Below are positions 2,810-64,000 of a stretch of 64,000 nucleotides of DNA, piece after piece. Numbering within the stretch: the first letter of the stretch is position 1; every line of letters starts with the position of its first letter. The stretch is from a virus (taxonomy: Duplodnaviria; Heunggongvirae; Uroviricota; Caudoviricetes), in IMG/VR virus record IMGVR_UViG_2706794662_000007, one strand, 5' to 3'. The notes under the pieces were generated by a model. That model was not told where the DNA came from, ran no database searches, and saw only the letters and a list, made by a program, of their open reading frames with translations. The position numbers were made by a program, and so were the translations under genes.

Positions 2810-2875
2810 AAAACAAGTTGTTTTCTTATGTGGCTTATTATCTCAATCAACAAAAGGTAGAAAACAAATTGTTTT
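2810..2875 (-). promoter_or_regulatory. two copies of palindromic motif AAAACAA-N1-TTGTTTT (2810-2824 and 2861-2875), candidate operator/promoter
   Basis: perfect 7-bp inverted arms; same motif recurs upstream of many minus-strand genes. Confidence 0.5.
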
Positions 2876-2909
2876 AGGGCTTGTGTAAATCAGGAGGGAT
2901 TGTGTCTAT

Positions 2910-2938
2910 ATGAAAATGCCCGGCGTGTTGCCGGGCAT
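2910..2938 (-). terminator. rho-independent terminator downstream of metG
   Basis: GC hairpin ATGCCCGGC/GCCGGGCAT followed by T-run in minus sense. Confidence 0.7.
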
Positions 2939-2958
2939 TGCGAAGAGAGGTTGTTTAA

Positions 2959-4897
2959 TTACTTAACCTGGTGGCCAGGTTTAGCACCAGCATCCGGGCT
3001 TAACAGGAAGATATCTTTCCCGCCAGGACCGGCAGCCATCACCATGCCTTCAGAGATACCGAAGCGCATTTTACGTGGTGCCAGGTTAGCCACCATAATG
3101 GTGTGACGACCAATCAGTGCCTGTGGATCTGGATAAGCGGAACGGATGCCTGAGAAGACATTACGCTTTTCACCACCGAGATCCAGCGTCAGGCGAAGCA
3201 GTTTGTCAGAACCTTCGACAAACTCCGCGTTTTCAATCAGCGCCACACGCAGGTCAACTTTGGCGAAGTCGTCAAAGGTGATGGTTTCCTGAATCGGTTC
3301 GTCAGCCAGTGGGCCAGTTACCGGTGCAGCTGTGGCTTTCACTTCTTCTTTGGATGCTTCCACCAGTGCTTCCACCTGTTTCATATCGATACGGTTATAC
3401 AGTGCCTTGAACGGATTCACTTTATGGCCCAGAAGCGGTTGCTGGATACCATCCCAGGTCAGTTCTGTATTCAGGAATGCTTCTGCACGTTCAGTCAGTT
3501 TCGGCAGTACCGGTTTCAGGTACGTCATCAGCACGCGGAACAGGTTAATGCCCATAGAGCAAATCGCCTGCAGATCTGCATCGCGACCTTCCTGCTTCGC
3601 CACCACCCACGGAGCCTGTTCATCGACATAGCGATTAGCCAGGTCAGCCAATGCCATGATTTCACGGATAGCTTTACCAAATTCGCGGCTTTCCCATGCT
3701 TCGCCAATCACTTCAGCGGCATCAGTAAAGGTTTTGTACAGTTGCGGGTCAGCCAGTTCGCTTGTCAGCACGCCGTCAAAACGCTTGTTGATAAAGCCTG
3801 CATTACGGGAGGCCAGGTTAACCACTTTGTTCACGATATCGGCATTCACGCGCTGAACGAAATCTTCCAGGTTGAGATCGATATCATCAATGCGCGAAGA
3901 GAGTTTCGCAGTGTAGTAGTAACGCAGGCTGTCAGCGTCAAAATGATTCAGCCAGGTGCTGGCTTTAATAAAGGTGCCGCGAGACTTGGACATCTTCGCG
4001 CCGTTCACCGTCACATAGCCGTGAACAAACAGGTTGGTCGGCTTGCGGAAGTTGCTGCCTTCCAGCATGGCAGGCCAGAACAGACTGTGGAAGTAAACGA
4101 TATCTTTGCCGATGAAGTGGTACAGCTCGGCGGTGGAGTCTTTCTTCCAGTATTCGTCGAAGCTTACGCTGTCGCCGCGCTTGTCGCACAGATTCTTGAA
4201 AGAACCCATGTAGCCAATCGGCGCGTCCAGCCAGACGTAGAAATATTTGCCCGGCGCGTTCGNNNNNNNNNNNNNNNNNNNNNNNNNNNNNNNNNNNNNN
4301 NNNNNNNNNNNNNNNNNNNNNNNNNNNNNNNNNNNNNNNNNNNNNNNNNNNNNNNNNNNNNNNNNNNNNNNNNNNNNNNNNNNNNNNNNNNNNNNNNNNN
4401 NNNNNNNNNNNNNNNNNNNNNNNNNNNNNNNNNNNNNNNNNNNNNNNNNNNNNNNNNNNNNNNNNNNNNNNNNNNNNNNNNNNNNNNNNNNNNNNNNNNN
4501 NNNNNNNNNNNNNNNNNNNNNNNNNNNNNNNNNNNNNNNNNNNNNNNNNNNNNNNNNNNNNNNNNNNNNNNNNNNNNNNNNNNNNNNNNNNCTCTTCGCT
4601 GTGCGTCGAGTGATAGTTGTCATAGCTGATGTTAAAGCCTGCGAAATCAGTCTGATGTTCCTGACTCATTTCGCCAATCATCTGTTCCGGTGTGATACCA
4701 AGCTGCTGTGCTTTCAGCATGATTGGCGTACCGTGGGCATCGTCGGCACAGATGAAATTAACCTCGTGGCCGCGCATTCGCTGGTAACGAACCCAGACAT
4801 CAGCCTGGATGTGCTCCAGCATATGGCCGAGGTGGATTGAGCCGTTAGCGTACGGCAGCGCGCACGTCACCAGAATTTTCTTCGCGACTTGGGTCAT
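2959..4897 (-). CDS. metG: methionyl-tRNA synthetase (interrupted by N-run 4263-4591)
   Basis: N-terminus [29 protein letters not shown] (HIGH motif) and C-terminus ...GAKPGHQVK match enterobacterial MetG as recalled; KMSKS present; ~140 residues hidden in the gap. Confidence 0.95.
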
Positions 4898-5054
4898 AGT
4901 AGGCATTACTTCTTTGTAGTGAAAAGGGGCTTGATAGTAACAAAATGGCCTTATGTCTGCCATGTGATAACAGCATTTCTCATAAATGATTAAATGTCGT
5001 AGCTGGAGTACACTACAAGGCGACAATTGCGCAAATTAAAATAAAGGAGACGGG

Positions 5055-6155
5055 ATGAGCGAGTCCAAATCGCCGGATGCCCTGAGAGCAATGGTAGCCG
5101 GTACGCTGGCTAATTTTCAGCACCCAACCCTGAAACACAACTTGACTACGCTTAAAGCGTTACACCATGTTGCGTTGATGGATGACACACTGCATGTCGA
5201 ACTAATCATGCCTTTCGTGTGGAATAAGCCTTTTGAAGACCTGAAAGAGCAATGTAGTGGTGATCTGCTCCGTATCACTGGCGCAAAGGCTATTGACTGG
5301 AAGCTGTCGTACAACATTGCCACGCTTAAGCGCGTCAAAAACCAACCAGGCATTAATGGCGTTAAGAACATTATCGCCGTCAGCTCAGGCAAGGGCGGCG
5401 TGGGTAAATCCTCCACAGCAGTAAACTTGGCACTGGCTTTGGCTGCTGAAGGTGCGAAAGTTGGTATTTTGGATGCCGATATCTATGGTCCATCAATTCC
5501 AACCATGCTGGGCGCGGAAAACCAACGTCCAACCTCACCGGACGGTACTCACATGGCACCTATCATGTCTCATGGCCTGGCAACCAACTCTATTGGTTAT
5601 CTGGTCACCGATGACAATGCAATGGTGTGGCGTGGACCGATGGCGAGCAAGGCGCTGATGCAGATGTTGCAGGAAACACTGTGGCCTGATCTGGACTATC
5701 TCGTTCTCGATATGCCACCGGGCACTGGTGATATTCAATTGACGCTGGCGCAGAACATTCCTGTAACTGGTGCGGTTGTGGTAACTACGCCGCAAGACAT
5801 CGCGCTGATCGATGCGAAGAAAGGCATTGTGATGTTCGAAAAAGTCGAAGTGCCGGTACTGGGTATCGTTGAAAACATGAGTGTGCATATTTGCAGTAAC
5901 TGCGGTCATCACGAGCCAATTTTTGGCACCGGTGGAGCACAGAAACTGGCCGAGAAATACAACACGCAGTTGTTAGGCCAAATGCCACTTCATATCTCTC
6001 TTCGTGAAGATCTGGATAACGGAACACCAACCGTTATTAGTCGTCCAGATAGCGAATTTACGGCTATTTATCGTGACCTCGCAGATCGCGTTGCTGCCCA
6101 AATGTATTGGCAAGGTGAAGTAATACCTGGCGAAATCGCATTCCGCGCAGTGTGA
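5055..6155 (+). CDS. apbC: Fe-S cluster carrier ATPase ApbC/Mrp
   Basis: 366 aa, P-loop GKGGVGKSS, CxxC near C-terminus, near-identical to E. coli Mrp as recalled; divergent from metG as on the chromosome. Confidence 0.95.
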   Translation: MSESKSPDALRAMVAGTLANFQHPTLKHNLTTLKALHHVALMDDTLHVELIMPFVWNKPFEDLKEQCSGDLLRITGAKAIDWKLSYNIATLKRVKNQPGINGVKNIIAVSSGKGGVGKSSTAVNLALALAAEGAKVGILDADIYGPSIPTMLGAENQRPTSPDGTHMAPIMSHGLATNSIGYLVTDDNAMVWRGPMASKALMQMLQETLWPDLDYLVLDMPPGTGDIQLTLAQNIPVTGAVVVTTPQDIALIDAKKGIVMFEKVEVPVLGIVENMSVHICSNCGHHEPIFGTGGAQKLAEKYNTQLLGQMPLHISLREDLDNGTPTVISRPDSEFTAIYRDLADRVAAQMYWQGEVIPGEIAFRAV

Positions 6156-6180
6156 TAAAAAGGCGGTGCATTGCACCGCC
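6156..6180 (-). terminator. terminator of the UmuD'-like gene, abutting the apbC stop codon
   Basis: hairpin GGCGGTGCA/TGCACCGCC followed by T-run in minus sense. Confidence 0.6.
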
Positions 6181-6192
6181 TAATCAGTTCTC

Positions 6193-6582
6193 CTACATCA
6201 CAGGACAATCATCAAACTCGCCACTTCTTGCGTCGTTGATAATGTGAGTGATCACACCAAACACGGCATTGCTGCCCGTGCATCCATCGTCATCCTTTGG
6301 CAATGCTTCCTTCTTACCGGTTCTTAAATCCTCCAGATGCTGACGTGGAGACTTCCGGTATCTTTTTACGCGATATTCCCCATCCAGAGCGCATACAAGC
6401 AGAGAACCATCAACCGGGGTAAGTGAGGAATCAACCACCAGCAATGCACCCTGTAATATTCCCTCACGATGATGACTATCAGCTGCTCTCATGAAGTAGG
6501 TCGCTGAAGGATGTCTAATTATCTGCTGATCAAGAGAAATACGGCTCTCAGCATAATCCGCCGCAGGAGAAGGGAAGCCCAT
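6193..6582 (-). CDS. UmuD'-like S24 peptidase-family protein (P1 HumD-like, natively lacking the UmuD N-terminal arm)
   Basis: starts MGFPSPAADYAESRISLDQQIIRHPSATYF, matching the UmuD region just after its RecA-mediated cleavage site; Ser and Lys positions retained; in-frame stop 4 codons upstream of ATG. Confidence 0.8.
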   Translation of the reverse strand: MGFPSPAADYAESRISLDQQIIRHPSATYFMRAADSHHREGILQGALLVVDSSLTPVDGSLLVCALDGEYRVKRYRKSPRQHLEDLRTGKKEALPKDDDGCTGSNAVFGVITHIINDARSGEFDDCPVM

Positions 6583-6767
6583 AGCGTTTTGCCCTCAATA
6601 CTGTTCATTTACACAGTATACATGAAAGAAGCTCACTCAGTGCAACTGATCGGTACATAGCACCAGACAAAGGAACGTTATTTTCTCGAACAAGAAAAGG
6701 TAGAAAACAAATTGTTTAAGGCCACAACTAGTGGCCTTAATGGAGAAGGGATGCTTATTGGCTATGG

Positions 6768-7286
6768 CTAAAAATCAAANNNNNNNNNNNNNNNNNNNNN
6801 NNNNNNNNNNNNNNNNNNNNNNNNNNNNNNNNNNNNNNNNNNNNNNNNNNNNNNNNNNNNNNNNNNNNNNNNNNNNNNNNNNNNNNNNNNNNNNNNNNNN
6901 NNNNNNNNNNNNNNNNNNNNNNNNNNNNNNNNNNNNNNNNNNNNNNNNNNNNNNNNNNNNNNNNNNNNNNNNNNNNNNNNNNNNNNNNNNNNNNNNNNNN
7001 NNNNNNNNNNNNNNNNNNNNNNNNNNNNNNNNTTTAAAGGAAGATAGGTTCCCCATAGTAGCTGTCTGCCGTGCGCTCGTGTGAAATACCGGGCCATCTT
7101 CGGATTGCTATGCTGCTTAGGAGCGCCTGGTCTGTATGTCTGATACCCGGCCAACATCCCATCAAACCTGTATAGAGGGAATGTAACAACTCCTTCGCTT
7201 TCATCGATCCACTGTCTATATGGATGCACATCATAGCGGTAGTTACGAGTTAGCAAATGAGCTTCCAGCTTTCCAAATTTAGTCAT
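6768..7286 (-). CDS. hypothetical protein, C-terminal part masked by N-run
   Basis: ATG at 7286 with GAGGGA SD; ORF runs into N-run 6780-7032, so the end is unreliable. Confidence 0.3.
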   Translation of the reverse strand: MTKFGKLEAHLLTRNYRYDVHPYRQWIDESEGVVTFPLYRFDGMLAGYQTYRPGAPKQHSNPKMARYFTRAHGRQLLWGTYLPLXXXXXXXXXXXXXXXXXXXXXXXXXXXXXXXXXXXXXXXXXXXXXXXXXXXXXXXXXXXXXXXXXXXXXXXXXXXXXXXXXXXXXFDF

Positions 7287-7299
7287 AACTTCGCATCCC

Positions 7300-8940: not shown

Positions 8941-8941
8941 A

Positions 8942-20225: not shown

Positions 20226-20283
20226 CTTCTTTCTCGATAGGTAAGTAAATACCTATTTTTGCATTTGATTTTATGTATGGCAA

Positions 20284-27346: not shown

Positions 27347-27380
27347 TTAAACAAGTTGTTATCCTATTTGTTTAAACAAG
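27347..27380 (-). promoter_or_regulatory. palindromic motifs (TAAACAAGTTGTTA and TTGTTTAAACAA) upstream of nrdB
   Basis: two inverted-repeat elements within 35-60 nt upstream of nrdB ATG. Confidence 0.45.
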
Positions 27381-29778: not shown

Positions 29779-29812
29779 ATGTTAATAGATAAGCACTTAC
29801 CTATCAATGAAA

Positions 29813-34373: not shown

Positions 34374-34627
34374 GTGTTTTTCCTTTGTGGTTATTTTGAT
34401 ACAAATTTTAAGAGCAATGAGAAGGTAAACAACTATGCATAACGGTATGTTAGGAATGAAACGAGCGTCTTAATATACAAAATTTATAAGTAAGTATATA
34501 CCTATTTGTTGTGGCGCAACTTTGCTTGTCTGTATGACTAAAAATAAGACAGGATCACTGTAGAACGCTATGAGAGCTATTTTGAGGAGGCGTAGATTCT
34601 ATCTACGCCAATATACGATCTGGAGGG

Positions 34628-35272
34628 TTACAGCGCGTCAGTGGGCTTTTTACGCGCTGCGTTTATGCTTATGACGCCAGCTTTTGGACGTGGGTCAACA
34701 AGGTTAAGCTCTTCTTCGCTGTGGTATTCGAGGTCGAACTCACGTTTTACATGTCTGATGTAGATTGCGGTGAGCAGGCTATCTTTGGTCAGAAAGTGTC
34801 CGTAGGATTTGCGGATCACTTCTTCTACCTTCTCGATTTTCTCACCACCCATACAGAGATGATTAAACCGGCTGTGTTTCCGCAACATTTCGTCTACTGG
34901 GCCTGAGTAAACCTTGTCTACTTTCCCAAAACGGATGATTTTTCCTGTGTCTGCGGATACGAGGCAAATCAGCTTGTCTGGTGATAAACGATCTCGCCAC
35001 GTCACACCTGAACGGAGTGTGTTGAAGTAGGGGGCATCCAATCCGATGATCGGTTTACGAAATGCGAGTAATGGAACGTACCTGATGCAACTGTTTAAAT
35101 GAAAATTCACACCAGCCTTATCAAGTTTAATTCTGGTTTCGTAGATCGGGCACTTCGCCGCTATACCGCAGATGTCACAAAGCAACTTCTGCTTATTCAG
35201 GTTGGAATTTGATTCGATAGTGTAGGAGCCGTCTTCAAGACGACGAACCCAGCGCGTGCGTTTTAGATCCAT
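34628..35272 (-). CDS. hypothetical protein divergent from repA
   Basis: 214-aa ORF. Confidence 0.45.
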   Translation of the reverse strand: MDLKRTRWVRRLEDGSYTIESNSNLNKQKLLCDICGIAAKCPIYETRIKLDKAGVNFHLNSCIRYVPLLAFRKPIIGLDAPYFNTLRSGVTWRDRLSPDKLICLVSADTGKIIRFGKVDKVYSGPVDEMLRKHSRFNHLCMGGEKIEKVEEVIRKSYGHFLTKDSLLTAIYIRHVKREFDLEYHSEEELNLVDPRPKAGVISINAARKKPTDAL

Positions 35273-37991: not shown

Positions 37992-38030
37992 GATAGGTAG
38001 ATACTAACTTATATAAACTTTACTGTAAAC

Positions 38031-40046: not shown

Positions 40047-40871
40047 TTAATATCCGGCGTATTCGTATTCTTCATTTAGACCGTATTCTTGTGGAGTGAT
40101 ACCAGGACAACATAACTCAAAGGCGAACTTGCGCCATTTGATTTTTTCTTCTGACGATTGTTTGTTATTCGCCGGTGCAATGTAGTCATATTCCCATTTG
40201 CCGTTGCGAAGTAAAATGAATCCGCAGTTATTGCCGAAGTCTTCGTCTGCATAACGTATTACAAACTCAAGGTGCGGGAACTTTCTAGCCATCGCTTGAT
40301 AAATTGGTTTTGGCATAGACCAGGCTGTTTCAAAGCGAATCACCAACTCACCACCAGTTGCGGCATGTCTTGCAAGACGTTTTTTATAGATTCGTTTTGC
40401 ATATGCTCGAACGTGTGTATGGCGGAAATTATGGCCGTACTTAATACGTGTAGGGATACGTTTTACGGGCATTTCGATGTTGTAGGCATTCCATTTTGTT
40501 CCCCAATTAGCTCGCGACCAGTCAAACCATGAGTAATAGCCATAGCGACGATAATTCTCAAGCCGCATAAGAGCCTGCTCTTTGATTTTGCGAATTTCCT
40601 TGCGTGTCATTCCTGATTCACGCATAGCTAATTCGACCTGTTCTGGAGTCTTTAATTCACCGAACATGTGGTCGTAAACTGTTTCGCCCGCCATTGCAGA
40701 GGCCATGCGCCTGATATGATTGTTTTCTTCCATTTCTATACTTTTCGGACGTCTGCAAATGGTATTAAAGTCAATTAGACCTTTTTTGTTAGTTATGGCA
40801 CGTATGAAATCTAAGCGTTGTTTATTTGTACCACCTATGACTCGGATTTCGTTTGTAATGTGGTTGGGCAT
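40047..40871 (-). CDS. hypothetical protein (low-GC block)
   Basis: 274 aa; contains His-hydrophobic-His (HTHV) and nearby YAKRIY, weak and non-canonical resemblance to HUH-type nucleases. Confidence 0.45.
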   Translation of the reverse strand: MPNHITNEIRVIGGTNKQRLDFIRAITNKKGLIDFNTICRRPKSIEMEENNHIRRMASAMAGETVYDHMFGELKTPEQVELAMRESGMTRKEIRKIKEQALMRLENYRRYGYYSWFDWSRANWGTKWNAYNIEMPVKRIPTRIKYGHNFRHTHVRAYAKRIYKKRLARHAATGGELVIRFETAWSMPKPIYQAMARKFPHLEFVIRYADEDFGNNCGFILLRNGKWEYDYIAPANNKQSSEEKIKWRKFAFELCCPGITPQEYGLNEEYEYAGY

Positions 40872-40878: not shown

Positions 40879-40892
40879 TTAACCTTTTAACA
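40879..40892 (-). promoter_or_regulatory. palindromic motif AACAAATTGTTTT upstream of gene 40047..40871
   Basis: same motif family as at 2810, 16403, 17131. Confidence 0.45.
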
Positions 40893-40966
40893 AATTGTTT
40901 TCTTGTGTGTGATAATAACGAGAATAAAACGGCGTCCAACTGGACGCCTGATCTTCTTAATGAGAG

Positions 40967-42001: not shown

Positions 42002-42093
42002 GTGTTTTCCTATGTGGTTGTTATGCGAAAATAATAAGTAAGTACTTATATATTTTCAAGAGATAAAAAAGGCGTCCTGTGGACGCCTTGTGT

Positions 42094-45486: not shown

Positions 45487-45603
45487 GTGTTTCTCCTTGT
45501 TGTGATTTGGCCGATGGCGCTATGCGCGTTGGGCTTTCGTTCATTCGTGGCTCTTTCGAGCTGTTAAATGATAGATCAGTACTTACTTATTATCTATCAA
45601 AAA

Positions 45604-51190: not shown

Positions 51191-53299
51191 TCACTTCAAA
51201 ATGATACGAGATAGTTCAGTAACTACAGATGAACCAAGACTATCAACGCTCGTTACCAGGGCATGATTTGAGTAAAATCTCTCCGGTGCGTCAGTCATGA
51301 TGCCAATTGCCATCAAATCAATGTCAGTCTGCGTTTCAATTTGCTTCGCAACCGAACGCAAATGAGCGTCAAAACCTCTCCCAACAGCCCACGGCGCGCC
51401 ATCACTCAGAACAAGCATGATCTTCCTGTCCTCCATGCGACCGGAAAATAACGATGCAAGGCTGGCTATGCTTTCACCATCCACGTTATTAAGAAGTGGG
51501 AATGTGTAGCCTACGCACCCCATACGTGAGCGAACTTCGCGAGAACTTACCTTTTCATTCCAATTTTTGATGATAGGTAGCATTAAAGATTCAAAGCGAG
51601 AGAACTCATACTTGACAGCCTTAAGTTCTCCTGCCGCCATATGACTACCAAATGTAGTGAAGCCGGTGATAATGTTGGGAACATTTATTCGATCAAGGGC
51701 ATCGGCGATGGTATATGAACTTGCAAGAGCCAATTGTATCGTTATACCACTCATTGAACCTGATAAATCAATCACTTGTTGAACACAGGCGTTAACGGCT
51801 TTAGATTCTTCTTTTTTACGAAACACGCGATCATCATTCATTGCTAATCTGTAGATACTAGAACCATGAATGCGCCCCCGACGCTGGCCCGGTATAAACT
51901 GAACTCTGTTTCTGCTTGCTATTGCTCGCTCCAGGTCTTTTGCCAGCGTCGACGAAACACCTGACGAAAGATGCTTTTCAATATATTTGTCGAAGAGCTG
52001 GTTGCCTTCAGGAACGATGCGATAGCGGCTGATTGGATATCCTCCTAAATCAATATCGGAGAATGTTTTAATAAGCCGTTTGATATGGGCTTCTGCCTGA
52101 TCAATCGAGCCGATGAAGTCGTATGAGCGATTGTATGGCCTGTATTCGCTTTTCGAGCTTTCTGTTAACTCGCTTTTAATCGTTTCGGATAGAGCATCTT
52201 CTGTCATGCCTCCGACTTCATCTTCTATGCTATCCAGCTCCTCTAAAGCCTCTTCCAGACTCATTTTTGACGGAGTTGGAATATCTGAAGAGCCGTCTTC
52301 TGTCGTTTTTCTTTTTTCGTGGTCAGCGGTTAATGATTCTGACGCCGCGTTATCAGAAGCATCAGAATCTGATACCTCTTTATCATTTTCTGTATCATCG
52401 AATATTGTTTCTGATGATTCAGAATTATCTGAATCATCACTGTCGTTATTATCATGTTTGTGCTTACTGTGTGATTCTGATTCGATAGATTTGTGATTAT
52501 CTAACGCTGAGGGTGTCTCATGATCTTCGTTGTCTTCATTGTTTTCTCCAGAGGCATCCGTCTGGTCAGCGTCTGAAGGATCGGAAGTTTTTCCCGGAGC
52601 TGACTCCTTACCTTTGCTTTCACTTTCAGTGTCTTTGAGGATCTTAGCTATGGTCGCAGCCACCTTTACACAATCCTCGGTGCAAGACATGTTACGCACG
52701 GCCACATCGATACCATGTTCTTTTAATAATGAAATTGGTTTCTCAATGACAGGCCAGTATTCATCCATGAAATCTACGAACGGTGCTTGGCCATCCCAGG
52801 CTCTTACAACCGGACAGAGAAAGAAGTTTAGAAAAAGCGCGCGCTGATCTTTGCCACAATAAGCAATAGCCTCTGAAGCCTTTGGTTTAAAGACTTTTTC
52901 GATTATAAGGCGCTGAGTTGCCATCAGATTACGTCTCGTTCCGTTAAAGACCTGCCCCATTTTTCGCTCGATGAACACGTCTTCTAATGCATTCCATAGT
53001 GACCGGGAAGGAACGCGTCCTTTTTCTCTCATTTTGTTGGAGACACGAATATCGGTAAACAAAATGTGAGCAACCTCATGATCGAGAAATCCGCGCACAG
53101 CATTCATCAATGCCGGTGTTGCGTTATCCGGAATTGATGGGATGTTTACGAGAATTGGCTCTCCATCATCGTTATAGCGTACATAAGCGTCGTCTCCTCG
53201 TTCTGCAACAGGGATGTTTTTACCTGAAAGGAGAGCGACTACTCGTTTTACACTGTCACGGAAGTCCTGAACCTCTTTGATGGAACGTTTTTTAGACAT
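51191..53299 (-). CDS. cobT: CobT-like von Willebrand factor A domain protein
   Basis: 702 aa; MIDAS motif DLSGSMSG; long acidic D/S/E-rich linker; adjacent to AAA+ partner. Confidence 0.6.
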   Translation of the reverse strand: MSKKRSIKEVQDFRDSVKRVVALLSGKNIPVAERGDDAYVRYNDDGEPILVNIPSIPDNATPALMNAVRGFLDHEVAHILFTDIRVSNKMREKGRVPSRSLWNALEDVFIERKMGQVFNGTRRNLMATQRLIIEKVFKPKASEAIAYCGKDQRALFLNFFLCPVVRAWDGQAPFVDFMDEYWPVIEKPISLLKEHGIDVAVRNMSCTEDCVKVAATIAKILKDTESESKGKESAPGKTSDPSDADQTDASGENNEDNEDHETPSALDNHKSIESESHSKHKHDNNDSDDSDNSESSETIFDDTENDKEVSDSDASDNAASESLTADHEKRKTTEDGSSDIPTPSKMSLEEALEELDSIEDEVGGMTEDALSETIKSELTESSKSEYRPYNRSYDFIGSIDQAEAHIKRLIKTFSDIDLGGYPISRYRIVPEGNQLFDKYIEKHLSSGVSSTLAKDLERAIASRNRVQFIPGQRRGRIHGSSIYRLAMNDDRVFRKKEESKAVNACVQQVIDLSGSMSGITIQLALASSYTIADALDRINVPNIITGFTTFGSHMAAGELKAVKYEFSRFESLMLPIIKNWNEKVSSREVRSRMGCVGYTFPLLNNVDGESIASLASLFSGRMEDRKIMLVLSDGAPWAVGRGFDAHLRSVAKQIETQTDIDLMAIGIMTDAPERFYSNHALVTSVDSLGSSVVTELSRIILK

Positions 53300-53397
53300 G
53301 GCTAATCCTTTGTTATGAAAACAAATTATTTACTAGTGTGTTTAATGTAGCACTGCGCGAACAGGGAACTAAGCCATTCGCGCAGGTAGCAGAGGGG

Positions 53398-53610
53398 TTA
53401 ACAGGTTCTGACGGCTAAAGAGCCAGAGCCGGTATTGATAAGCGTGAAGCGTTTGTTATTAAGTAGGAATATAAAGGCTGTTGCGTCATGCATACCAACC
53501 TGAATCTGCTCATTTGGTAATTCGGTGAGAATGTCAGCTACACATTCATCAGCTAATTTTTCAACGTGTCCGATCTCAAGAGTGATTAGGCTGGAAATAG
53601 TTGTTTTCAT
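53398..53610 (-). CDS. hypothetical small protein
   Basis: 70-aa ORF divergent from XRE regulator across an AT-rich 250-bp region. Confidence 0.35.
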   Translation of the reverse strand: MKTTISSLITLEIGHVEKLADECVADILTELPNEQIQVGMHDATAFIFLLNNKRFTLINTGSGSLAVRTC

Positions 53611-53857
53611 TCAATCAATCCATTCTAACTTAAAATATGGTAGGGAGTACTATTAAATCTTATATCATAATTGAACTTATCTATATCATATCTGAGTTAG
53701 TTTTGTTACATGTTATTAGTCGTTTTTCTCCATTAATGAATGCTGATTGGTTAATATTTGTGCCTGTAGAAAAAATGATTATATCTTTACAACCCTAACC
53801 TTTGATGTAATATCGGTAAGCACTTACCAGAGAGTTTAACGCGCAAAGGTCGCAATA

Positions 53858-54244
53858 ATGTCTGACAAAAACATTGAATTTATAGAAAGTCGCTATGCTG
53901 CTTTTATCGCAGGGCTGATTGAATCCTCACCTATGAGTCAGGCCCAAATAGCCAGACTTATTGGTTATAAAAATGCCAACAACCTTTCTTTAATTAAAAG
54001 TGGTAAAATTCCTTTGCCTATCGATAAGGTTCGTCCGCTGGCGTTGGCGCTGGGTATTGAGCCAAGTCGTCTTATGATGATGGTGCTGGAAGAACGCCAA
54101 CCTGAACTCGCAGCATTTTTATACAAAGAAGGTACCGCTCCTCTTAACGAGGACGAAAAACAGGTTCTTGCTGCATATAACGAGCGATTCGGTAAAGAGA
54201 AAGGCGCATCACAAAAGGTTGTTGAGGCCATAAAGTCTCTATGA
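53858..54244 (+). CDS. XRE-family helix-turn-helix transcriptional regulator
   Basis: MSQAQIARLIGYKNANNLSLIKSGKIPLP resembles HTH_XRE; only clear plus-strand gene in this region. Confidence 0.6.
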   Translation: MSDKNIEFIESRYAAFIAGLIESSPMSQAQIARLIGYKNANNLSLIKSGKIPLPIDKVRPLALALGIEPSRLMMMVLEERQPELAAFLYKEGTAPLNEDEKQVLAAYNERFGKEKGASQKVVEAIKSL

Positions 54245-55549: not shown

Positions 55550-57463
55550 TTAGGTTGGGTTGTTGATGCTAATGGTAAGTGTTTCGATAGCAAGATCATG
55601 AGTTTGGTTGTTTGTTATATCTGTTAAAACAAAAGCCTCATCACCAAGAGCAATATTGTCTTTAACCAGCTTGAATTTACTCCCCGCCTTGCCATCGAGA
55701 ACGGGAATTACAGTTCCTGTGCCTTTCTCATATTGCAACTCAAGAGTGTGCCAATTGTTGTCGTAGTCACCATATGAGTCTATCTGAACATTTCGATTAT
55801 TGCCTGTCCTGTGCATCATAATGTTCAACTTGCCTCCAATTGTTTGAAGGAAGAAGTTAGCCAGAAACAGGCTCCCAGTACCGTCGAATGATATATCGTC
55901 AGCAACAGGTTTACTGGTTTTGTAATATATACCAAAGCCAAACTTAGCTTTTTTTGGATCAGGGTTTCCAGATAATTTAAACTTACAAAGTAATTTACCT
56001 CCATTCTCAAGAAGAGCCTGTGCTATGTCAGTAGCTTTACTGATCGTCCAAGTTTCGTTGGAAACCGCTTTAGTTAAAGCAATTGCTTTTCCGTTTTCAA
56101 CTGACTGAATATTTGCACCAGTTACAGTCCATCCTTGTTCAGTAGCGACATCACCACCAGCTCCAGTTAAGGAAATAACCGTTCGCGGGGTTGGAGTTGT
56201 GACAATGTTGTCATTTTTAGGTTGAGTAGGTTGTTCTTGTTTAATAATCTCACCTGTAACGCCATTCACAAAAGCAGATGATTTCGCTGAATGTGCAAGC
56301 AGCGCAGTTGCGAGACGATCAGATATTATTCCGCGTCGCTGCCATGAACCAAAATGACTCTCTCTACTCTCGGAAGTCCATGTTTTATTATCCTTGCGAT
56401 GACCGGAACCATAATAGCCAATAGATGTGATGTCTGGATCATCTGTAGGGCTATTGGTTAATACGTTATTATCATTCTCATCTTTCATGAATGGAACGAA
56501 ATAAATTGCTTGTGAGGTTTTTCCCTTATAACCACCATAAACAATTTCGTACTGTTTTGGATATTTGTTTTTCCACCAGTGGGTCGTATCGCCACAAATC
56601 CAGGGTACATTTGCAGCACTTCCGAAAACACATTGTGCGTCGTATTGAGATAGCTCTTTTCTGAAACCTTCGACCATCTTGAGGAACAGTTCGTTATGCT
56701 GCGAGTACTTGCCAGTTGCCAAATCAGCTTCGCCTTGCATCCAGACAACACCAAGAAATACATTCTTTTTGTTTTTACTTAAGGCCGCTTTTGTTCTGGC
56801 TACAATATCCTTATACAAAGGAGTATTTAATCCCCATTTTAAAGATGATTCGATTGCACCTGACTCTTCATAATATTGGCCTTCAGAGCCTGTAACAGTG
56901 AAACCAGAACCACCTCTTCCGCAAGGAACGAGCAAAATACCTGCGTTTGCTGGAATGAATGGTAATAGTTTTTTGCCAATGTGTAGTCCCTGACCAACAC
57001 ATCCATATTCAGAGTCGTTTGCTTTTGGATGCTTGAATTTAGTCATGTCTTGTACATCATGAAGACAGTGATCAGCGGGAATTATTTCATTGTACTTACA
57101 GGCAAAACCACCTGGTTTAATATTGCTGCGTCGAGCTAACTGTTTTACGCGAGGATGTGGCCGATCAAAAGTTTTTGGCATAGGCAGTCCTTCGCCGTAT
57201 GACATTGAGTTGGATTGACCTGCGATAGTAACTACATAATAATAGTCAGGCTCTTCATCTTCATTTGATACCGGTGTGGGCAATTGTGATAAATCACCAG
57301 ATCGCACAATTGCTTGATTGTACGCATTTGGTCCGCCCTTACTTGGTTCAACAATGTTTGGTGACTCGAAAGGTTGCCAACCCTCTGCGATTTTCTCCGC
57401 AAGTTTTTCTCTAAGCTCTTTGCTTGATGATGCTGACAAAATATCATAGTCAATGAATGACAT
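55550..57463 (-). CDS. NanS-p-like sialate O-acetylesterase (DUF1737 N-terminus, SGNH esterase, C-terminal beta-rich domain)
   Basis: YYYVVTIAGQSNSMSYGEG (GQSN block); N-terminus MSFIDYDILSASSSKELREKL resembles prophage NanS-p family as recalled. Confidence 0.6.
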   Translation of the reverse strand: MSFIDYDILSASSSKELREKLAEKIAEGWQPFESPNIVEPSKGGPNAYNQAIVRSGDLSQLPTPVSNEDEEPDYYYVVTIAGQSNSMSYGEGLPMPKTFDRPHPRVKQLARRSNIKPGGFACKYNEIIPADHCLHDVQDMTKFKHPKANDSEYGCVGQGLHIGKKLLPFIPANAGILLVPCGRGGSGFTVTGSEGQYYEESGAIESSLKWGLNTPLYKDIVARTKAALSKNKKNVFLGVVWMQGEADLATGKYSQHNELFLKMVEGFRKELSQYDAQCVFGSAANVPWICGDTTHWWKNKYPKQYEIVYGGYKGKTSQAIYFVPFMKDENDNNVLTNSPTDDPDITSIGYYGSGHRKDNKTWTSESRESHFGSWQRRGIISDRLATALLAHSAKSSAFVNGVTGEIIKQEQPTQPKNDNIVTTPTPRTVISLTGAGGDVATEQGWTVTGANIQSVENGKAIALTKAVSNETWTISKATDIAQALLENGGKLLCKFKLSGNPDPKKAKFGFGIYYKTSKPVADDISFDGTGSLFLANFFLQTIGGKLNIMMHRTGNNRNVQIDSYGDYDNNWHTLELQYEKGTGTVIPVLDGKAGSKFKLVKDNIALGDEAFVLTDITNNQTHDLAIETLTISINNPT

Positions 57464-57607
57464 AATCGTTACTCCTTTAACGATAAACTTTAGCTAAAAT
57501 CGTATCGATTTTAGCAGTTAAAAAACGACAATAAAATATAAGAGTAATGTATGAAAGAACAATAAAAATTGCGTAAATGGATATGTGTAAAATATGTGGA
57601 ATTTCAC

Positions 57608-57687
57608 ACACAGCGTTGAGCGGTCTGGTTTATGTTAGCGGAGTCTTAATCGAGTTGATTAAAAGGCCAAACCGCTCAACGCTGTGT
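57608..57687. repeat. 17-bp perfect inverted repeat (ACACAGCGTTGAGCGGT) with 46-bp spacer, abutting tRNA-Ser
   Basis: arms 57608-57624 and 57671-57687. Confidence 0.8.
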
Positions 57688-57688
57688 C

Positions 57689-57775
57689 TGGCGGAGAGTA
57701 ATGGAATCGAACCATCATCGCTTGCGCAATGGGACGGTTTTCAAGACCGCTTGAGCACCATGCTCCCTACTCTCC
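57689..57775 (-). tRNA. tRNA-Ser (anticodon UGA), type II with long variable arm
   Basis: 7-bp acceptor stem GGAGAGT/ACTCTCC, anticodon loop CTTGAAA, T-loop TTCGATT, encoded CCA; short D-loop. Confidence 0.65.
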
Positions 57776-57939
57776 AGTCGTTGTGGTTACCGGTACTGAT
57801 CTCCGGCTTAGCGACCCCGGCTACTGACTGCATTGCAGTGTGTGAACTCGCCTCGTGTGTCGCTGGGGCATTTCTTTCCGCGCATCAGTCTGCGCATCAA
57901 CCACAACGGAAAGAGCATTCACGTCTCGCGTGCCACCAC

Positions 57940-58035
57940 GAATGGCAACTCAGAGAGTCGAACTCTGAAAATGTTCTTACCTGTTGTGCGCTCCGTTTCG
58001 TGGAGCTAACGGCGGGTGAACAGGCCGCACCAGGT
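57940..58035 (-). pseudogene. tRNA-like remnant (T-arm intact, no pairing acceptor stem)
   Basis: perfect T-arm CAGAG-TTCGACT-CTCTG but no complementary acceptor stem found. Confidence 0.3.
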
Positions 58036-58265
58036 TGGACATATTTCAGCGTTATGCTGTTGCAAGAGAGCCAAATTGTGATGGTCGGCGCTGATCTCCG
58101 ACACAGGGTTGTAGCAAGCCCCGCAAAGCGCGCACTACTGTAGTTGCGGCACATCAGCCTGTGCATTCACCACAATGTTGAGAACACTGGTTGTCACGCG
58201 GCAACGCAACATTTATTCATAGATTGGGATATGACCCCGTTACGCCAATGTTCTCAATATTATGT

Positions 58266-58341
58266 TGGTGCCGATTAACGGGATCGAACCGATGACCATT
58301 CGCTTACAAAGCGACTGCTCTACCAACTGAGCTAAATCGGC
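58266..58341 (-). tRNA. tRNA-Thr (anticodon UGU)
   Basis: acceptor GCCGATT/AATCGGC, D-arm TAGCTCAGTTGGTAGAGCA, anticodon loop TTTGTAA, T-loop TTCGATC, encoded CCA. Confidence 0.8.
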
Positions 58342-58345
58342 AATT

Positions 58346-58432
58346 TGGTGGGGAGTGATAGAGTCGAACCACCCGAGTCGCAATGACAGTAGATTTACAG
58401 TCTACCCCGCTACCTCTACGGACTAACTCCCC
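58346..58432 (-). tRNA. tRNA-Tyr (anticodon GUA), type II
   Basis: acceptor GGGGAGT/ACTCCCC, anticodon arm GTAGA-CTGTAAA-TCTAC, long variable arm, encoded CCA. Confidence 0.8.
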
Positions 58433-58437
58433 TAAAT

Positions 58438-58512
58438 TGGCGATGGTGGGTGGATTCGAACCACCGACCAATTGGTTAACAGCCAACTGCTCTACCGCTG
58501 AGCTACACCATC
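58438..58512 (-). tRNA. tRNA-Asn (anticodon GUU)
   Basis: perfect 7-bp acceptor GATGGTG/CACCATC, anticodon loop CTGTTAA, T-arm GGTGG-TTCGAAT-CCACC, encoded CCA; differs from E. coli tRNA-Asn as recalled. Confidence 0.85.
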
Positions 58513-61242: not shown

Positions 61243-62539
61243 TGTTGTTTTACCTCCATATGTTGATCGATTTGCTCATGTGTTTCTTTTGTTGTTTCTT
61301 CAAGCAACGCCGCATACACGTCAGTGATCGCTGTTTGTGATGTGGTGCTCTTCTTAACCATGCTATTAATCGTTACACTGTCACGTTTTCGTTTTAAAGT
61401 TCTGGCTTGTTTATTCCGTTCTTCAACCTCCTTAATGAGCGCGGTCATATCTTCGAAATACAGAGATTCTCCTTTACGAATCTCTTCAACCATCATTTTT
61501 AACGCCTTGCATTTGCCTGCTTTGATAGCGGTTGCGCACGACTGGAATGAAGTTCGAGGAAGACGGTTTTCTTTGAAGGCAAGAATGGTGTGCTGGCAAA
61601 CGGAGTAGCTGCAATATGCCGACTCACCGTTTATNNNNNNNNNNNNNNNNNNNNNNNNNNNNNNNNNNNNNNNNNNNNNNNNNNNNNNNNNNNNNNNNNN
61701 NNNNNNNNNNNNNNNNNNNNNNNNNNNNNNNNNNNNNNNNNNNNNNNNNNNNNNNNNNNNNNNNNNNNNNNNNNNNNNNNNNNNNNNNNNNNNNNNNNNN
61801 NNNNNNNNNNNNNNNNNNNNNNNNNNNNNNNNNNNNNNNNNNNNNNNNNNNNNNNNNNNNNNNNNNNNNNNNNNNNNNNNNNNNTAGCAATCCTGACCAC
61901 CTTCCAAGCAAATTCCGCCATTACGCCATCACATGCCTTCCCAGCATCAATAACGATATGCACCAGATCCAACTGGCTTTTGCACATGTCGCAAAGAGAC
62001 GCATACTCACTCTCTCTGATTACATTTACGGCATCATTAGCCCCTTTATTAAGCAAGACTTCCAACAGATTTTTCGGGGTAACGAAATCTGCTTTCAGAG
62101 ATAATGTCTTTTCACCACTTATCGAACGCAAGTACTCTTCGTAGTTATTCTTCATCAAACCGCTGCTGCGCATTGCTAGAACTGCTTCTTGAATGGCCGC
62201 TTCAATAGTTTCGTCGTTTGAAAGACAAAAAACGGTATTTGTGTAGATCACTCTGCCATCAAGCCATGCTCCAACCTGCACTTTAAGACTGAGCGGGTTT
62301 TCTTTGCTAATAAAAACAACTAATGCAGAACGTCGTGCACAAGAAGGTTCACCCCATACGTGTAACTTAACCTTCAGATAAGGTAGCCCCGGTAGCGGGA
62401 TCTCGACCAAACGAGTGGCGATATGATCCATTGCTGTTTTTACCGCTTTTTCAATGATGTCTAGTCGATTGCTCTCGCTGATTTCTAAACCAGTTTTATC
62501 AATGATGTCGCAGGCTAATTTCTGAATTTCGTCTTTCAT
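61239..62539 (-). CDS. hypothetical replication-associated protein (interrupted by N-run 61635-61884)
   Basis: two ORF pieces either side of the gap, between primase and ligase; frame continuity cannot be verified. Confidence 0.35.
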
Positions 62540-62614
62540 ACCAACTCCTAGCTAACAGATGAAAGTATTCTCACAGAAAGATAAGTAATCATCTACTTAT
62601 TTTAAAGGTGATTG

Positions 62615-63796
62615 TTATGATAGAGCCTTAATGCCCAAAACCTTGCTTTGCAACTCCAACTGTTTGGTATACGGTTTTGCCCGATAATAGGCTTTGATAA
62701 TTTGTTCTGGCGTTGCACCGCCCGGGTCGAGTCCTTCCTCACCCAAACACGCAACTTTGACATTAAGACCGATACTGGTCAGTCGCCTGGCTGCGGCCAT
62801 CGTGTTGCGTATAGCTTGCTTTTCACTATCCCACATCATGATCACATTACGTAATCCACGCGCCTTGAGCGTCAGGAACGCGCCCAACTGATCTTCTGCA
62901 TCCTGAGTGGTGTTGCCAGATAGATGCATCCCGAACGTTCCTATTGGCTCCACGTAATCACGTAATGTTTCTTCGTCGAAAATAGCTCGTTTGACCCCCA
63001 TAACATCGAACGCACCCTCACAGACAACTACAGTCTGTTTGCCGACTGCATTATGGCCGTTGTAGAGAAATTTACCTGAAGCTGGAAGCTGCATAGGAAA
63101 GAGGTAGCGGCGTTCTGCTGTACCGGTAATGTCTCGTCCCTGAAATGTCTTCATTACCCCATCCAGATCGTAAACCGGTATCAGTATTCGCATATCGAAT
63201 ATCTGCCCTTTTACCTGATCTGTATACGGATCTACATAAGCGTGCTTGCCTTCGACGCAGTATCGTAGGTCAAAATACTTTGCCATTTCAGGTGATATGT
63301 TTCGTTCAACCAGATAATCTGGAAGACGGCCATCTATAGGAAGCTCGTAATGACGAGGGAGTGCAACTGGCCCCTCTAACTCGACTGTGCTTGCAAGCAC
63401 TAGCTCTTCTTTCTTTGGTGCCCACCCCTGGGAAAGAAGAGCGTTCTGCACATATTCCTCGAACTGTCGTCGTGATTTACCGCTGTAGTGCTTGAGGAAG
63501 ACCAGCTTATTGAACTGAATCTCTTCGGGATGATCACCAGCGAAGCATTTGCCGACGCCACTGGTCAGATTGAAATATACCTTCCAGTTGGAGCTGCCGC
63601 ATACCGGACACTCCTTGATATTCACTTCACGACCGCGAGTACTCACGCCTCCACGTCGATAAACGATACCTTCAGTATCCAACCATTGTTCAAAATCTAA
63701 TTCGGCAATTAGCTCTTTCAGCTCGCTCACGATAATTCCACTTTTAACAGGCAATATTGTGACCAATCTAAATGTTGATATAACATAAAGGCTCAT
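62615..63796 (-). CDS. DnaG-type DNA primase (zinc-binding plus TOPRIM)
   Basis: zinc ribbon CPVCGSSNWKVYFNLTSGVGKCF, TOPRIM VVVCEGAFD and DxD-like MMWDSE; ATG at 63796 with conserved start region. Confidence 0.75.
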   Translation of the reverse strand: MSLYVISTFRLVTILPVKSGIIVSELKELIAELDFEQWLDTEGIVYRRGGVSTRGREVNIKECPVCGSSNWKVYFNLTSGVGKCFAGDHPEEIQFNKLVFLKHYSGKSRRQFEEYVQNALLSQGWAPKKEELVLASTVELEGPVALPRHYELPIDGRLPDYLVERNISPEMAKYFDLRYCVEGKHAYVDPYTDQVKGQIFDMRILIPVYDLDGVMKTFQGRDITGTAERRYLFPMQLPASGKFLYNGHNAVGKQTVVVCEGAFDVMGVKRAIFDEETLRDYVEPIGTFGMHLSGNTTQDAEDQLGAFLTLKARGLRNVIMMWDSEKQAIRNTMAAARRLTSIGLNVKVACLGEEGLDPGGATPEQIIKAYYRAKPYTKQLELQSKVLGIKALS

Positions 63797-64000
63797 GTGT
63801 TTTTCTTTTGTGGTTTGGCAAAAGAAAAGTTGTTTCACCAATGAATCAAGCGTGGAGGTGTTCTCCACGCTTATTTTTTAGGTAACGTCTAAGATTCGCT
63901 CAATGAAGCGCATTTGTTCGAGGTTTTGTTTAACGCGAATGCTGATCCCTCCCTGCTGGTTACGTGAACCAGCAAAGTAGAGACGAGCCTCTCCTTTCGC

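Follow-up and report, generated by a model that had tools for sequence, protein, structure and literature searches.

Operators that recur in many copies are a known kind of control element in phages and plasmids. The C1 repressor of P1 acts at many operators, asymmetric 17-mers (ATTGCTCTAATAAATTT), which are scattered over the plasmid prophage and overlap the promoters of unlinked operons. In the IncP plasmid RK2, the KorB site OB is a 13-bp palindrome, TTTAGC-S-GCTAAA (two 6-bp arms around one base), with about 12 repeats before operons, class I OB lying just upstream of the -35 element, and in the KorA/KorB regulon, as in the omega regulon of pSM19035, the regulator doubles as a partition protein. 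The stoperators of mycobacteriophage L5 and the conserved inverted repeats (CIR) of Streptomyces phage phiC31 number in the dozens and lie in the short gaps between genes of a temperate phage, where they serve as repressor sites that silence the lysogen; those of L5 lack symmetry, depend on orientation and are often distant from promoters. Single operons provide further parallels, such as lac O1, a dyad centred at about +11 to +14 between the transcription start and the ribosome-binding site and accompanied by an upstream auxiliary operator. T4-type PeSL are near-identical promoter cassettes with a hairpin before small accessory genes in plastic genome regions, and FljA of Salmonella reportedly acts on RNA, in the 5′UTR of fliC.

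The palindrome described here, AAACAA-N-TTGTTT, is apparently undescribed so far in the SSU5-like family. We analysed a 64,000-nt stretch of DNA (the window) that is 100% identical to 'Escherichia phage CMS-2020a' and represents an SSU5-like phage-plasmid of E. coli. The first-pass annotation had surmised that the two flanks of the metG-apbC block are the same element, and this proved correct: the entire window is one SSU5-like phage-plasmid, in which metG and apbC are cargo. Our preferred reading, which we give a probability of about 0.6, is that the palindrome is a double-stranded DNA operator common to most promoters of the phage-plasmid, and that one putative regulator switches them together.

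Copies of the palindrome in the window and in related elements

A recurrent palindrome upstream of many operons, AAAACAA-N1-3-TTGTTTT, had been noted in the first-pass annotation, and its recurrence is real. Exact matches number three in the window (2810, 2861 and 17131) against 0.01 expected, and a search for AAAACAA-N-TTGTTTT with up to two mismatches and a 1-bp spacer gave 11 against 0.72 expected (Table 1), a number reached by none of 100 sequences in the shuffled control which that annotation had called for. The spacer is 1 bp in every copy, not 1–3 bp as first supposed, and we take as the core the 13-bp 6-1-6 dyad AAACAA-N-TTGTTT, which was also the commonest perfect palindrome (five copies) in an unbiased count of all 6-N(0-4)-6 palindromes in the window. 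Nine of the 11 copies are intergenic on a crude ORF map that leaves 14.3% of the window non-coding (binomial P ~1e-6), those at 359 and 1924 lie outside the CDSs of the (incomplete) PLSDB gene table for the matching plasmid NC_018651.1, and annotated CDSs hold none of the 11. The gap to the start codon is 11–30 nt for copies after a -10 element and 63–121 nt for copies before a -35 element. Several entries of the initial list required revision: the supposed copy at 27368 is an everted TTGTTT-AAACAA, the one placed at 40879 exists but occupies 40887–40901, that at 63824 is only a degenerate site with three mismatches, the half site assigned to 2134 is present at 2137–2145 on the minus strand, and the copies at 359, 1924 and 53318 had been missed.

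Table 1. The 11 copies of the palindrome in the window, with associated sites and genes. Class 1, copy after the -10; class 2, copy before the -10.
Feature	Position	Strand	Sequence and promoter	Context
Class 1 copy	359..373	-	AAAACAACATGTTTA; -10 TATTGT with TG at 387-392	11 nt before listed start (347) of gene 18-347
Copy, 2 mismatches	1924..1938		no -10 at either fixed distance	within 1.5-kb stretch without listed CDS
Half site	2137..2145	-	GAAAACAAC, preceded by CCAATAAG	edge of ORF-poor stretch
Class 1 copy	2810..2824	-	AAAACAACTTGTTTT on gene strand; 12 nt after -10	12 nt before ATG of gene 2498-2797 (DUF5983; Pfam)
Predicted extended -10	2837..2842	-	TGaGATAAT; missed by strict two-hexamer promoter scan	common to palindromes 2810 and 2861
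Class 2 copy	2861..2875	-	centre 26 nt upstream of -10 (~-38)	
Class 2 copy	6704..6718	-	TAAACAATTTGTTTT; -10 GAAAAT at 6680-6685, exactly 26 nt from centre	doubles as tail of terminator-like hairpin 6716-6740
Class 2 copy	11840..11854	-	TAAATAAATTGTTTT; -10 TGtGAAAAT at 11816-11821	hairpin GGCCATAAGTTGTGGCC directly before; heads operon 11224-11766
Class 1 copy	16402..16416	-	-10 CACAAT at 16429-16434	17 nt before ATG of gene 15815-16384
Class 1 copy, perfect	17131..17145	-	no strict -10 at fixed distance	23 nt before ATG of TerB/TciA-like gene 16682-17107
Class 1 copy	27348..27362	-	ATAACAACTTGTTTA; weak -10	nrdB leader, 30 nt before ATG
Class 1 copy	40887..40901	-	AAAACAATTTGTTAA; -10 TATTAT at 40912-40917	15 nt before ATG of gene 40047-40871
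Class 1 copy	53318..53332	-	TAAATAATTTGTTTT; -10 TGcTACATT at 53344-53349	18 nt before ATG of cobT-like gene 51191-53299
Second palindrome family	53814..53829		CGGTAAGCACTTACCA	promoter region of XRE gene
XRE-type regulator gene	53858..54244	+		CYRAN_45 homologue
Degenerate copy, 3 mismatches (doubtful)	63822..63836	-	GAAACAACTTTTCTT	upstream of primase gene

The palindrome is not confined to the window. Salmonella phage SSU5 has 21 copies against about 0.5 expected, all of them intergenic by the SSU5 annotation, and these include orthologues of the copy at 1924 and of the nrdB-leader copy (L005 40739 and 20218, respectively). AAACAA-N-TTGTTT is also the commonest perfect palindrome of SSU5 and of a distant Klebsiella plasmid (L019), and it ranks first in nearly all loci of at least 12 kb among 76 viral loci. 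In a 40-kb region examined of an Acinetobacter relative, the palindrome was not enriched.

A promoter cassette with the palindrome at two fixed positions

An alignment of 39 sites (A1) revealed that the palindrome is not free-standing, being one module of a promoter cassette of ~70 bp which comprises, in order, a weak -35, a conserved CC-TTTT spacer, a -10 (GATAAT, TATTAT or GAAAAT, often TG-extended) and AAC-CCAA-AAG. Two positions are used. In the first, which is the commonest form in the phage-plasmid, the palindrome lies 10–13 nt after the -10 and just before the Shine-Dalgarno sequence (predicted ~+7 to +21, centre ~+14), and a good -10 ends 10–13 nt upstream in 17 of 25 such copies. In the second, its centre is exactly 26 nt before the -10 (~-38; ~-45 to -31), over the -35, and this was the case in all seven upstream copies of the alignment. 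Some promoters have both, 51 bp or about five helical turns apart, as do the copies at 2861–2875 and 2810–2824. A TG extension is present in 10/25 downstream and 6/7 upstream copies, and the sites with a good -10 (17/25 and 7/7) conform to a sigma-70 extended -10 (A2 and T6, TG at -15/-14). Across 565 distinct contexts, hexamers resembling a -10 are most frequent at offsets -25/-26, in 204 sites, the median per offset being 7. A strict two-hexamer sigma-70 scan found no canonical -35 at 16–18 bp from the -10 at the cassettes; it misses these promoters because their -35 hexamers are weak, the best scoring 3–5 of 6 with spacers of 15–19 bp. Transcripts had been expected in the first-pass annotation to start just downstream of the motif, whereas the start predicted from the cassette is 5–8 nt upstream of most copies, which places the palindrome in the initially transcribed region, and the remaining copies overlap the -35.

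The same annotation had observed that the copies at 6704 and 11840 directly follow hairpins, and this was borne out: a terminator scan classes 6740–6716(-) as terminator-like, the palindrome forming the T-rich tail, and 11840, like two SSU5 copies, comes after the same GGCCAC hairpin. The copies might then belong to intrinsic terminators of the operons upstream, for which they would supply the U-rich tail. A G+C-rich hairpin followed by a T-run is, however, present at 6704, plausibly at 11840 and at none of the other nine copies; those at 2810, 16402, 17131, 27348, 40887, 53318 and 359 have no hairpin before them and are located after a -10. In addition, two relatives have a complete hairpin and T-tract 15 nt before the palindrome, and the A-rich half would break up a U-tract, so that a reading of the copies as terminator tails is hardly credible.

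It is also improbable, although less so, that the palindrome has no dedicated binder and is a matter of promoter architecture. The copy at -38 would then act as an A/T-rich UP-like element and that at +14 as a conserved part of the initially transcribed region or leader, both having spread with a mobile promoter cassette whose main use is in recombination and the shuffling of genes, as in T4 PeSL. The entire 70-bp cassette does recur before small accessory genes, in some cases accompanied by the same GGCCAC...GTGGCC hairpin, and conservation extends upstream of the palindrome to an A at -9 and a G at -8. Furthermore, many promoters of the distant plasmid L019 keep only the left half site, GAAAACAA, in the downstream position, which may mean that this half has a separate function in the promoter or the leader. 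Against this, the same 13-bp dyad is kept at two unrelated promoter positions, its C and G at ±3 are 86–88% conserved although an UP element needs A/T only, its centre base is free, and across genera with ~78% DNA identity the palindrome is far better conserved than its flanks.

Symmetry, leader RNA and expression in the lysogen

The pattern of conservation in the palindrome bears on whether it acts as DNA or as RNA. Positions ±1 to ±6 are conserved at 83–98% on both sides in the 565 contexts, and the centre base is unbiased (25/24/28/21%). Among 130 sequence types, only three of the 10 changes affecting both sides were compensatory, with none in five of the six pairs, and the predicted leaders form no stable hairpin (fold z -0.67 to +1.43). 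Symmetry, a free centre, few compensations and the lack of a hairpin favour a double-stranded DNA site for a symmetric protein. Together with the fixed spacing, the overlap with the promoter core and the rigid distance to the -10, they leave a dimeric-regulator site, as the first-pass annotation had suggested, as the best reading.

Potentially, the conserved element could be RNA. The FljA-like protein of the element would then target the leader motif AAGAAAACAAnUUGUUUA just before the Shine-Dalgarno sequence, preventing translation and making the mRNAs less stable, in the way that FljA acts on the leader of fliC in Salmonella. All SSU5-group genomes examined encode a full-length member of PF03614, 'repressor of phase-1 flagellin' (E 1e-80), the family is found in 831 plasmid records with no Acinetobacter plasmid among the matches, in line with the lack of enrichment in the Acinetobacter region, and the downstream copies fall in the leader as predicted. 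In Salmonella, the leader of fliC contains CCAATAAC-ATCAAGTTGT, which has a CAAGTTG core 24 nt before the ATG and resembles CCAATAAG-AAAACAAGTTGT. We nevertheless regard an RNA target as unlikely, since the -38 copies, exactly 26 nt from the -10, are outside the transcript of their own promoter, the leaders show neither covariation nor a stable hairpin, the fliC leader did not come first in a scan with a rigid matrix derived from phage sites, and the FljA-like protein is only 36–39% identical in lineages with an unchanged palindrome.

Published RNA-seq of an LF82 lysogen of Cyrano, a phage-plasmid 93–97% identical to that of the window, allows expression to be compared. Of 13 first genes behind palindrome promoters, 12 are below the expression cutoff of that study; these first genes read 5.7–25.5, the background median being 9.8, with 49.8 for parA and 96–590 for genes with other promoters. 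Ciprofloxacin induces Cyrano 39-fold. The low reads in the lysogen suggest repression, although promoters needing an activator would fit equally well, and translational repression alone, as in the FljA-like alternative, would not lower RNA to background.

Candidate binders and comparison with known systems

Under the operator reading, a symmetric dimer or dimer of dimers encoded by the element would bind the palindromes and keep their promoters shut in the plasmid-prophage state, such that one protein might control about 20 operons, among them accessory genes, nrdB, the cobT-like gene, a helicase gene, parA and the late terS operon. The XRE-type protein proposed in the first-pass annotation makes a poor candidate for that protein. 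Its gene, expressed at 96 in the lysogen of Cyrano versus the background of 9.8, is annotated there as a putative repressor, and in SSU5-like plasmids it is about as widespread as the palindrome. Yet the 247-bp divergent control region of the gene has no copy of the palindrome, nor has 53333–53857, and its promoter carries the second palindrome instead, GGTAAG-NN-CTTACC, in the E. coli element and, at the orthologue, in the Klebsiella element, with AGTAAG-NN-CTTACT in an Acinetobacter relative that has an XRE homologue. SSU5 keeps its 21 copies without an XRE/integrase module at the corresponding locus, and XRE is 59–65% identical between genera in which the palindrome is invariant. That XRE binds AAACAA-N-TTGTTT is therefore very improbable; it is probably tied to the GGTAAG-NN-CTTACC family, which may instead provide the operator of the lysogeny repressor. 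The second family is closer to the L5/phiC31 model than is the AAACAA palindrome.

The most plausible binders are small lysogen-expressed proteins encoded outside the window, such as a 119-aa protein encoded directly behind the type Ib parA; the palindrome is present in the promoter of its own operon (L003 6584–6598). This protein has an invariant segment, KSRTMSxEDE...FTRSDVIRAAI, and yielded no significant fold or sequence match, its AlphaFold model being poor (pLDDT 64). The palindrome is unchanged while all candidate regulators diverge, which also fits a conserved host factor.

A broader scheme, which is speculative and to which we give little weight, is that one 13-bp site links the two halves, plasmid and phage, of elements in the SSU5/pHCM2/pMT1 family. 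A maintenance-module protein, either the small partner of ParA (KorB/omega-like) or the FljA-like protein with its tandem Hfq fold, would silence phage operons at about 20 promoters or leaders, and a second regulon marked by GGTAAG-NN-CTTACC, probably under XRE, would govern the other operons. Were the binder the FljA-like protein, FljA of Salmonella and a global silencer of phage-plasmids would be members of one protein family, and the target of FljA in the fliC leader, with the CAAGTTG core, would be a relic of the palindrome operator.

Among the described systems, T4-type PeSL share the recurrence of the cassette and hairpin but lack a dyad operator that is conserved at two fixed positions. 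The FljA/fliC pair has in common with the element a PF03614 protein and a leader with CCAATAA and the CAAGTTG core, spaced similarly from the ATG, although a DNA site is favoured here and the resemblance is not significant in the rigid matrix scan. The sites in short intergenic gaps recall L5 and phiC31, but the palindrome is symmetric and locked to promoter geometry, and is thus not an L5-type stoperator. As with P1 C1, one repressor would act at scattered operators overlapping the promoters of unlinked operons; the two have no sequence relation, and a 6-1-6 dyad at two stereotyped positions replaces the 17-mers. KorB OB is matched in form only, in the 13-bp 6-1-6 palindrome before many operons and in the -38 copies just upstream of or over the -35, and the palindrome at the parA operon may parallel the partition role of KorB and omega; the sequence differs, and the +14 placement is the commonest here. 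That placement is shared with lac O1, as is an upstream auxiliary site, which could allow cooperative binding, with the difference that here the putative regulon spans the phage-plasmid and the paired operators are 51 bp apart.

An invariant palindrome between genes

When every perfect 6-N(0-4)-6 palindrome was counted without bias, the 13-bp AAACAA-N-TTGTTT (fuller form AAAACAA-N-TTGTTTT), a candidate operator, came out on top for the window, for SSU5 and for a distant relative from Klebsiella. Its observation in the window is solid. A motif search with a shuffled-sequence control bore out the recurrence described in the first-pass annotation: 11 copies with ≤2 mismatches and a 1-bp spacer were found versus 0.72 expected, a number reached in 0 of 100 shuffles, and the exact AAAACAA-N1-3-TTGTTTT pattern occurred three times versus 0.01 expected. 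Nine of the 11 copies are intergenic on a crude ORF map in which 14.3% of the sequence is non-coding (P ~1e-6), and the copies at 359 and 1924 lie outside the CDSs of the PLSDB gene table for NC_018651.1, a table that is incomplete. Matches with three mismatches are mostly chance occurrences within genes, the exception being that at 63822. The positions listed previously were essentially right apart from 27368, which is an everted arrangement, and 40879, which is really 40887; the copies at 359, 1924 and 53318 were absent from that list, and in place of the 1-3 bp spacer described there, the spacer is 1 bp in every copy, with no real copies having 2-3 bp spacers found in the window.

Megablast comparisons identified the window as an SSU5-like phage-plasmid of E. 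coli, with positions 7001-32000 and 37001-62000 being 100% and 98.8% identical, respectively, to "Escherichia phage CMS-2020a" (CP054387.1, 109 kb, circular), and with identities of 95.7-98.9% to PhiR41_1 and Cyrano (the pLF82 element) and ~78% to Salmonella phage SSU5 and Klebsiella phage-plasmids. The FljA-like (PF03614) protein has an identical counterpart on plasmid p09EL50 from E. coli O104:H4 (NC_018651.1, 109,274 bp), the gene map of which fits the window. Genes in the window lie almost all on the minus strand, and its seven N runs (~250-330 bp each) reflect masking. The PhiR41_1 and Cyrano elements likewise contain metG and apbC/mrp, and therefore the earlier proposal that both flanks of the metG-apbC block are one element was correct. 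The 637-aa ORF that lies between the integrase gene and the tRNAs has no Cyrano counterpart at that position and may be a cargo or defence gene. SSU5-like phage-plasmids account for 800-960 plasmid records in database searches and are common in Escherichia, Klebsiella, Enterobacter, Salmonella (pHCM2) and Yersinia pestis (pMT1-related).

The palindrome is conserved in these relatives. Eight further copies are present in the remainder of the CMS-2020a genome (0.7 expected), 21 in SSU5, all between annotated genes (~0.5 expected), and 10 perfect copies in 32 kb of a Klebsiella plasmid with an FljA-like protein of only 38% identity. Among 76 viral contigs retrieved via the FljA-like gene, it leads the palindrome ranking in almost all loci of at least 12 kb, without any change in sequence. 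No enrichment was seen in 40 kb of a syntenic Acinetobacter phage-plasmid (3 copies versus 1.0 expected). The Acinetobacter plasmid NZ_CP061522.1 encodes a sigma-70-family sigma factor between dnaE and a MoxR-like ATPase gene that is the counterpart of the SSU5-group cobS-like gene; the enterobacterial elements have no sigma factor there.

Coordinates of features in the window and in comparison loci
Feature	Position	Strand	Remark
Stretch without credible ORF	~700-2250		1.5 kb
metG (methionyl-tRNA synthetase)	2959-5026		cargo inside phage-plasmid; N-masked in part at 4263-4591
apbC/mrp	5055-6155		cargo inside phage-plasmid
S24 peptidase (UmuD-like) gene	6193-6582		
CTGT-N8-ACAG (LexA-box-like) site	6601-6616		within TACTGTGTAAATGAACAGTA on gene strand
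GGCCAC-GTGGCC hairpin	6716-6740; ~11855-11873		
GGCCAC-GTGGCC hairpin, SSU5 (locus L005)	~35580; ~37605		
Second palindrome	13034-13049; 18025-18040; 20239-20254; 29787-29802; 34488-34503; 42036-42051; 45573-45588; 53814-53829		
Second palindrome, further sites	near 38001; 38332; 51166; 59250; 62593		
TATATCATA(A/T) direct repeats	53661-53674; 53682-53695		
XRE gene	53858-54244	+	
637-aa ORF	55550-57463	-	
CYRAN_43 equivalent	57577-58143	+	
tRNA-Ser(tga)	57689-57775	-	
tRNA Thr, Tyr, Asn	58266-58512	-	
terS late-operon leader, locus outside window (L003)	34615-34740	-	
terS late-operon leader, SSU5 (locus L004)	12-137		
Sigma factor gene, Acinetobacter plasmid (L020)	15101-15766		

Geometry of the promoter cassette

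Alignment of 39 sites in gene orientation revealed that the palindrome is one module of a ~70 bp cassette, which runs from a weak -35 through a spacer with a conserved CC-TTTT and a -10 (GATAAT, TATTAT, GAAAAT or CACAAT, often with TG) to AAC(G/A)CCAA(C/T)AAG, and then to the palindrome, the Shine-Dalgarno sequence and the ATG. At class 1 sites, where the palindrome follows the -10, it begins 10-13 nt past that hexamer, which is a good one in 17 of 25 sites, 10 of them with TG. At class 2 sites, where the palindrome comes first, its centre is exactly 26 nt before the -10 in all seven cases, six having TG. Over all loci (565 distinct contexts), -10-like hexamers peak at offsets -25/-26 from the centre, with 204 sites versus a median of 7 per offset. 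Sigma-70 promoters start transcription ~7 nt after the -10; with such a start, class 1 copies would cover ~+7 to +21 and class 2 copies ~-45 to -31. Both types of copy, 51 bp apart, occur in the promoter at 2810-2875 and in two SSU5 promoters. A strict two-hexamer sigma-70 scan at three cassettes called no promoter because their -35 hexamers are weak, and it is the fixed -10/TG geometry that supports the promoter assignment.

GGCC-rich hairpins precede the copies at 6704 and 11840, and one of these hairpins was scored as terminator-like, the palindrome forming its tail. The previous suggestion that these two copies could be terminator tails is retained as a possible secondary role, but it cannot account for the other nine copies. 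A symmetric protein that recognises double-stranded DNA is favoured because the centre base is free to vary (25/24/28/21%), both halves are conserved (83-98%), changes are one-sided, with pairing kept in only three of 10 both-side changes, and the palindrome is not folded into a stable hairpin in predicted leaders (MFE 0 to -3.8 kcal/mol, z -0.67 to +1.43). In addition, class 2 copies are outside their own promoter's transcript, yet have base-pair-exact spacing from the -10.

Several arrangements around the copies were also observed. The hairpin GGCCAC-(4-5 nt)-GTGGCC recurs directly before upstream-type copies in different loci and genomes, which suggests that it moves together with the palindrome and the promoter as a single cassette. 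In the terS late-operon leader, two copies 25 bp apart are followed by a G+C-rich hairpin and T-run before the Shine-Dalgarno sequence, a layout that suggests an attenuator or antitermination step. The stretch lacking a credible ORF, for which no CDS is listed in the matching plasmid, is shared with Cyrano and PhiR41_1 at 93-95% and with SSU5 at 68% over 1.3 kb, and holds the copy at 1924 and a half site with a promoter-like flank (2137). An Rfam scan of the whole window returned tRNAs only, with no match in this stretch, which could be an origin or a non-coding RNA.

Expression in the lysogen and candidate regulators

In RNA-seq of strain LF82, which carries Cyrano, the element has a background median of 9.8, and values of 5.7-25.5 are given for the genes placed first after class 1 promoters (PMC9928086, supplementary file 2), among them terS (7.1), helicase (21.1), cobT-like (7.8), nrdB (12.9), TciA-like (7.0) and CYRAN_101 (7.5); parA reads 49.8 (PMC9928086). 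Genes with other promoters are far higher, including those for XRE (96), RepA (133) and toxin-antitoxin systems (140-590) (PMC9928086). Ciprofloxacin raises Cyrano virions 39-fold. The silence of good extended -10 promoters in the lysogen fits repression, and a missing activator instead would give the same picture; the sign of regulation, like the identity of the binder, is something that we infer. The sole LexA-box-like site in the window (0.84 expected by chance) lies 19 nt before the S24 peptidase gene, whose Cyrano homologue is well expressed in the lysogen (148). The highest-read ORF in the lysogen, CYRAN_43 (723-fold over background, as reported), was rejected as a regulator: its equivalent in the window overlaps tRNA-Ser on the opposite strand and its translation is implausible as a protein. 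The signal is probably the tRNA.

The XRE protein, previously put forward as a candidate regulator, is unlikely to be the binder and was rejected as the leading candidate, since its 247-bp control region has no copy of the AAACAA palindrome and its own promoter has a different one. The FljA-like gene, ~4.4 kb before the window start, is universal in the SSU5 group. Structure prediction modelled its product as two Hfq/Sm folds with no HTH, which points to RNA rather than duplex DNA as its likely target, and a classical DNA-binding repressor role was rejected on that basis. We keep the palindrome as an RNA-level target of this protein as a rival only. The Salmonella fliC leader (from two genomes, Salmonella diarizonae and arizonae) shares CCAATAA and a CAAGTTG core, lying similarly far from the ATG, but it was not top-ranked in a rigid matrix scan built from the phage sites and, not being singled out, was rejected as a match to that matrix. 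When the palindrome was compared with FljA-like divergence over the 76 viral loci, it stayed unchanged throughout, which leaves this co-variation test without power. Alternatively, the binder of the DNA site may be a conserved host factor.

A second palindrome family, AGGTAAG-NN-CTTACCT (longest form ATAGGTAAG-NN-CTTACCTAT), has 10 intergenic copies in the window versus 1.25 expected. It heads operons that have no AAACAA palindrome (nrdA, cobS-like, ssb and the ligase region) and is found in short gaps of the SSU5 late operon. The copy CGGTAAGCACTTACCA is 29-44 nt before the XRE start codon, GGTAAGTACTTACC is at the same place in a Klebsiella element, and an Acinetobacter relative sharing the XRE homologue has the counterpart AGTAAG-NN-CTTACT. 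The XRE protein probably governs this second family, which would be the operator of a repressor. The divergent region separating the XRE gene from the gene at 53398-53610 contains two direct repeats of TATATCATA(A/T) at a distance of 21 bp, which are a possible further operator pair of the immunity switch.

Relationship to known operator regulons

Full-text literature searches found nothing on regulation of the SSU5 family and no description of the palindrome in work on SSU5, pHCM2, or phage-plasmid repressors, promoters, operators and motifs. An invariant putative operator with fixed places in the promoter, taken with the second family, provides a concrete map of two candidate regulons in a clinically widespread family. 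Both palindromes are defined DNA probes for the regulators that set the choice between plasmid maintenance and lytic growth, and the AAACAA palindrome offers a simple way to recognise the promoters and operon boundaries of SSU5-like elements from sequence.

By analogy, the system would be a multi-copy operator regulon in kind. Such regulons include the P1 C1 operators, RK2 KorB OB sites, pSM19035 omega sites, L5 stoperators and phiC31 CIRs. The KorB OB sites are also 13-bp 6-1-6 palindromes, some of them just upstream of the -35. Set against these systems, the AAACAA palindrome has a different sequence and two rigid positions within a single cassette, and occurs alongside a second putative palindrome regulon.
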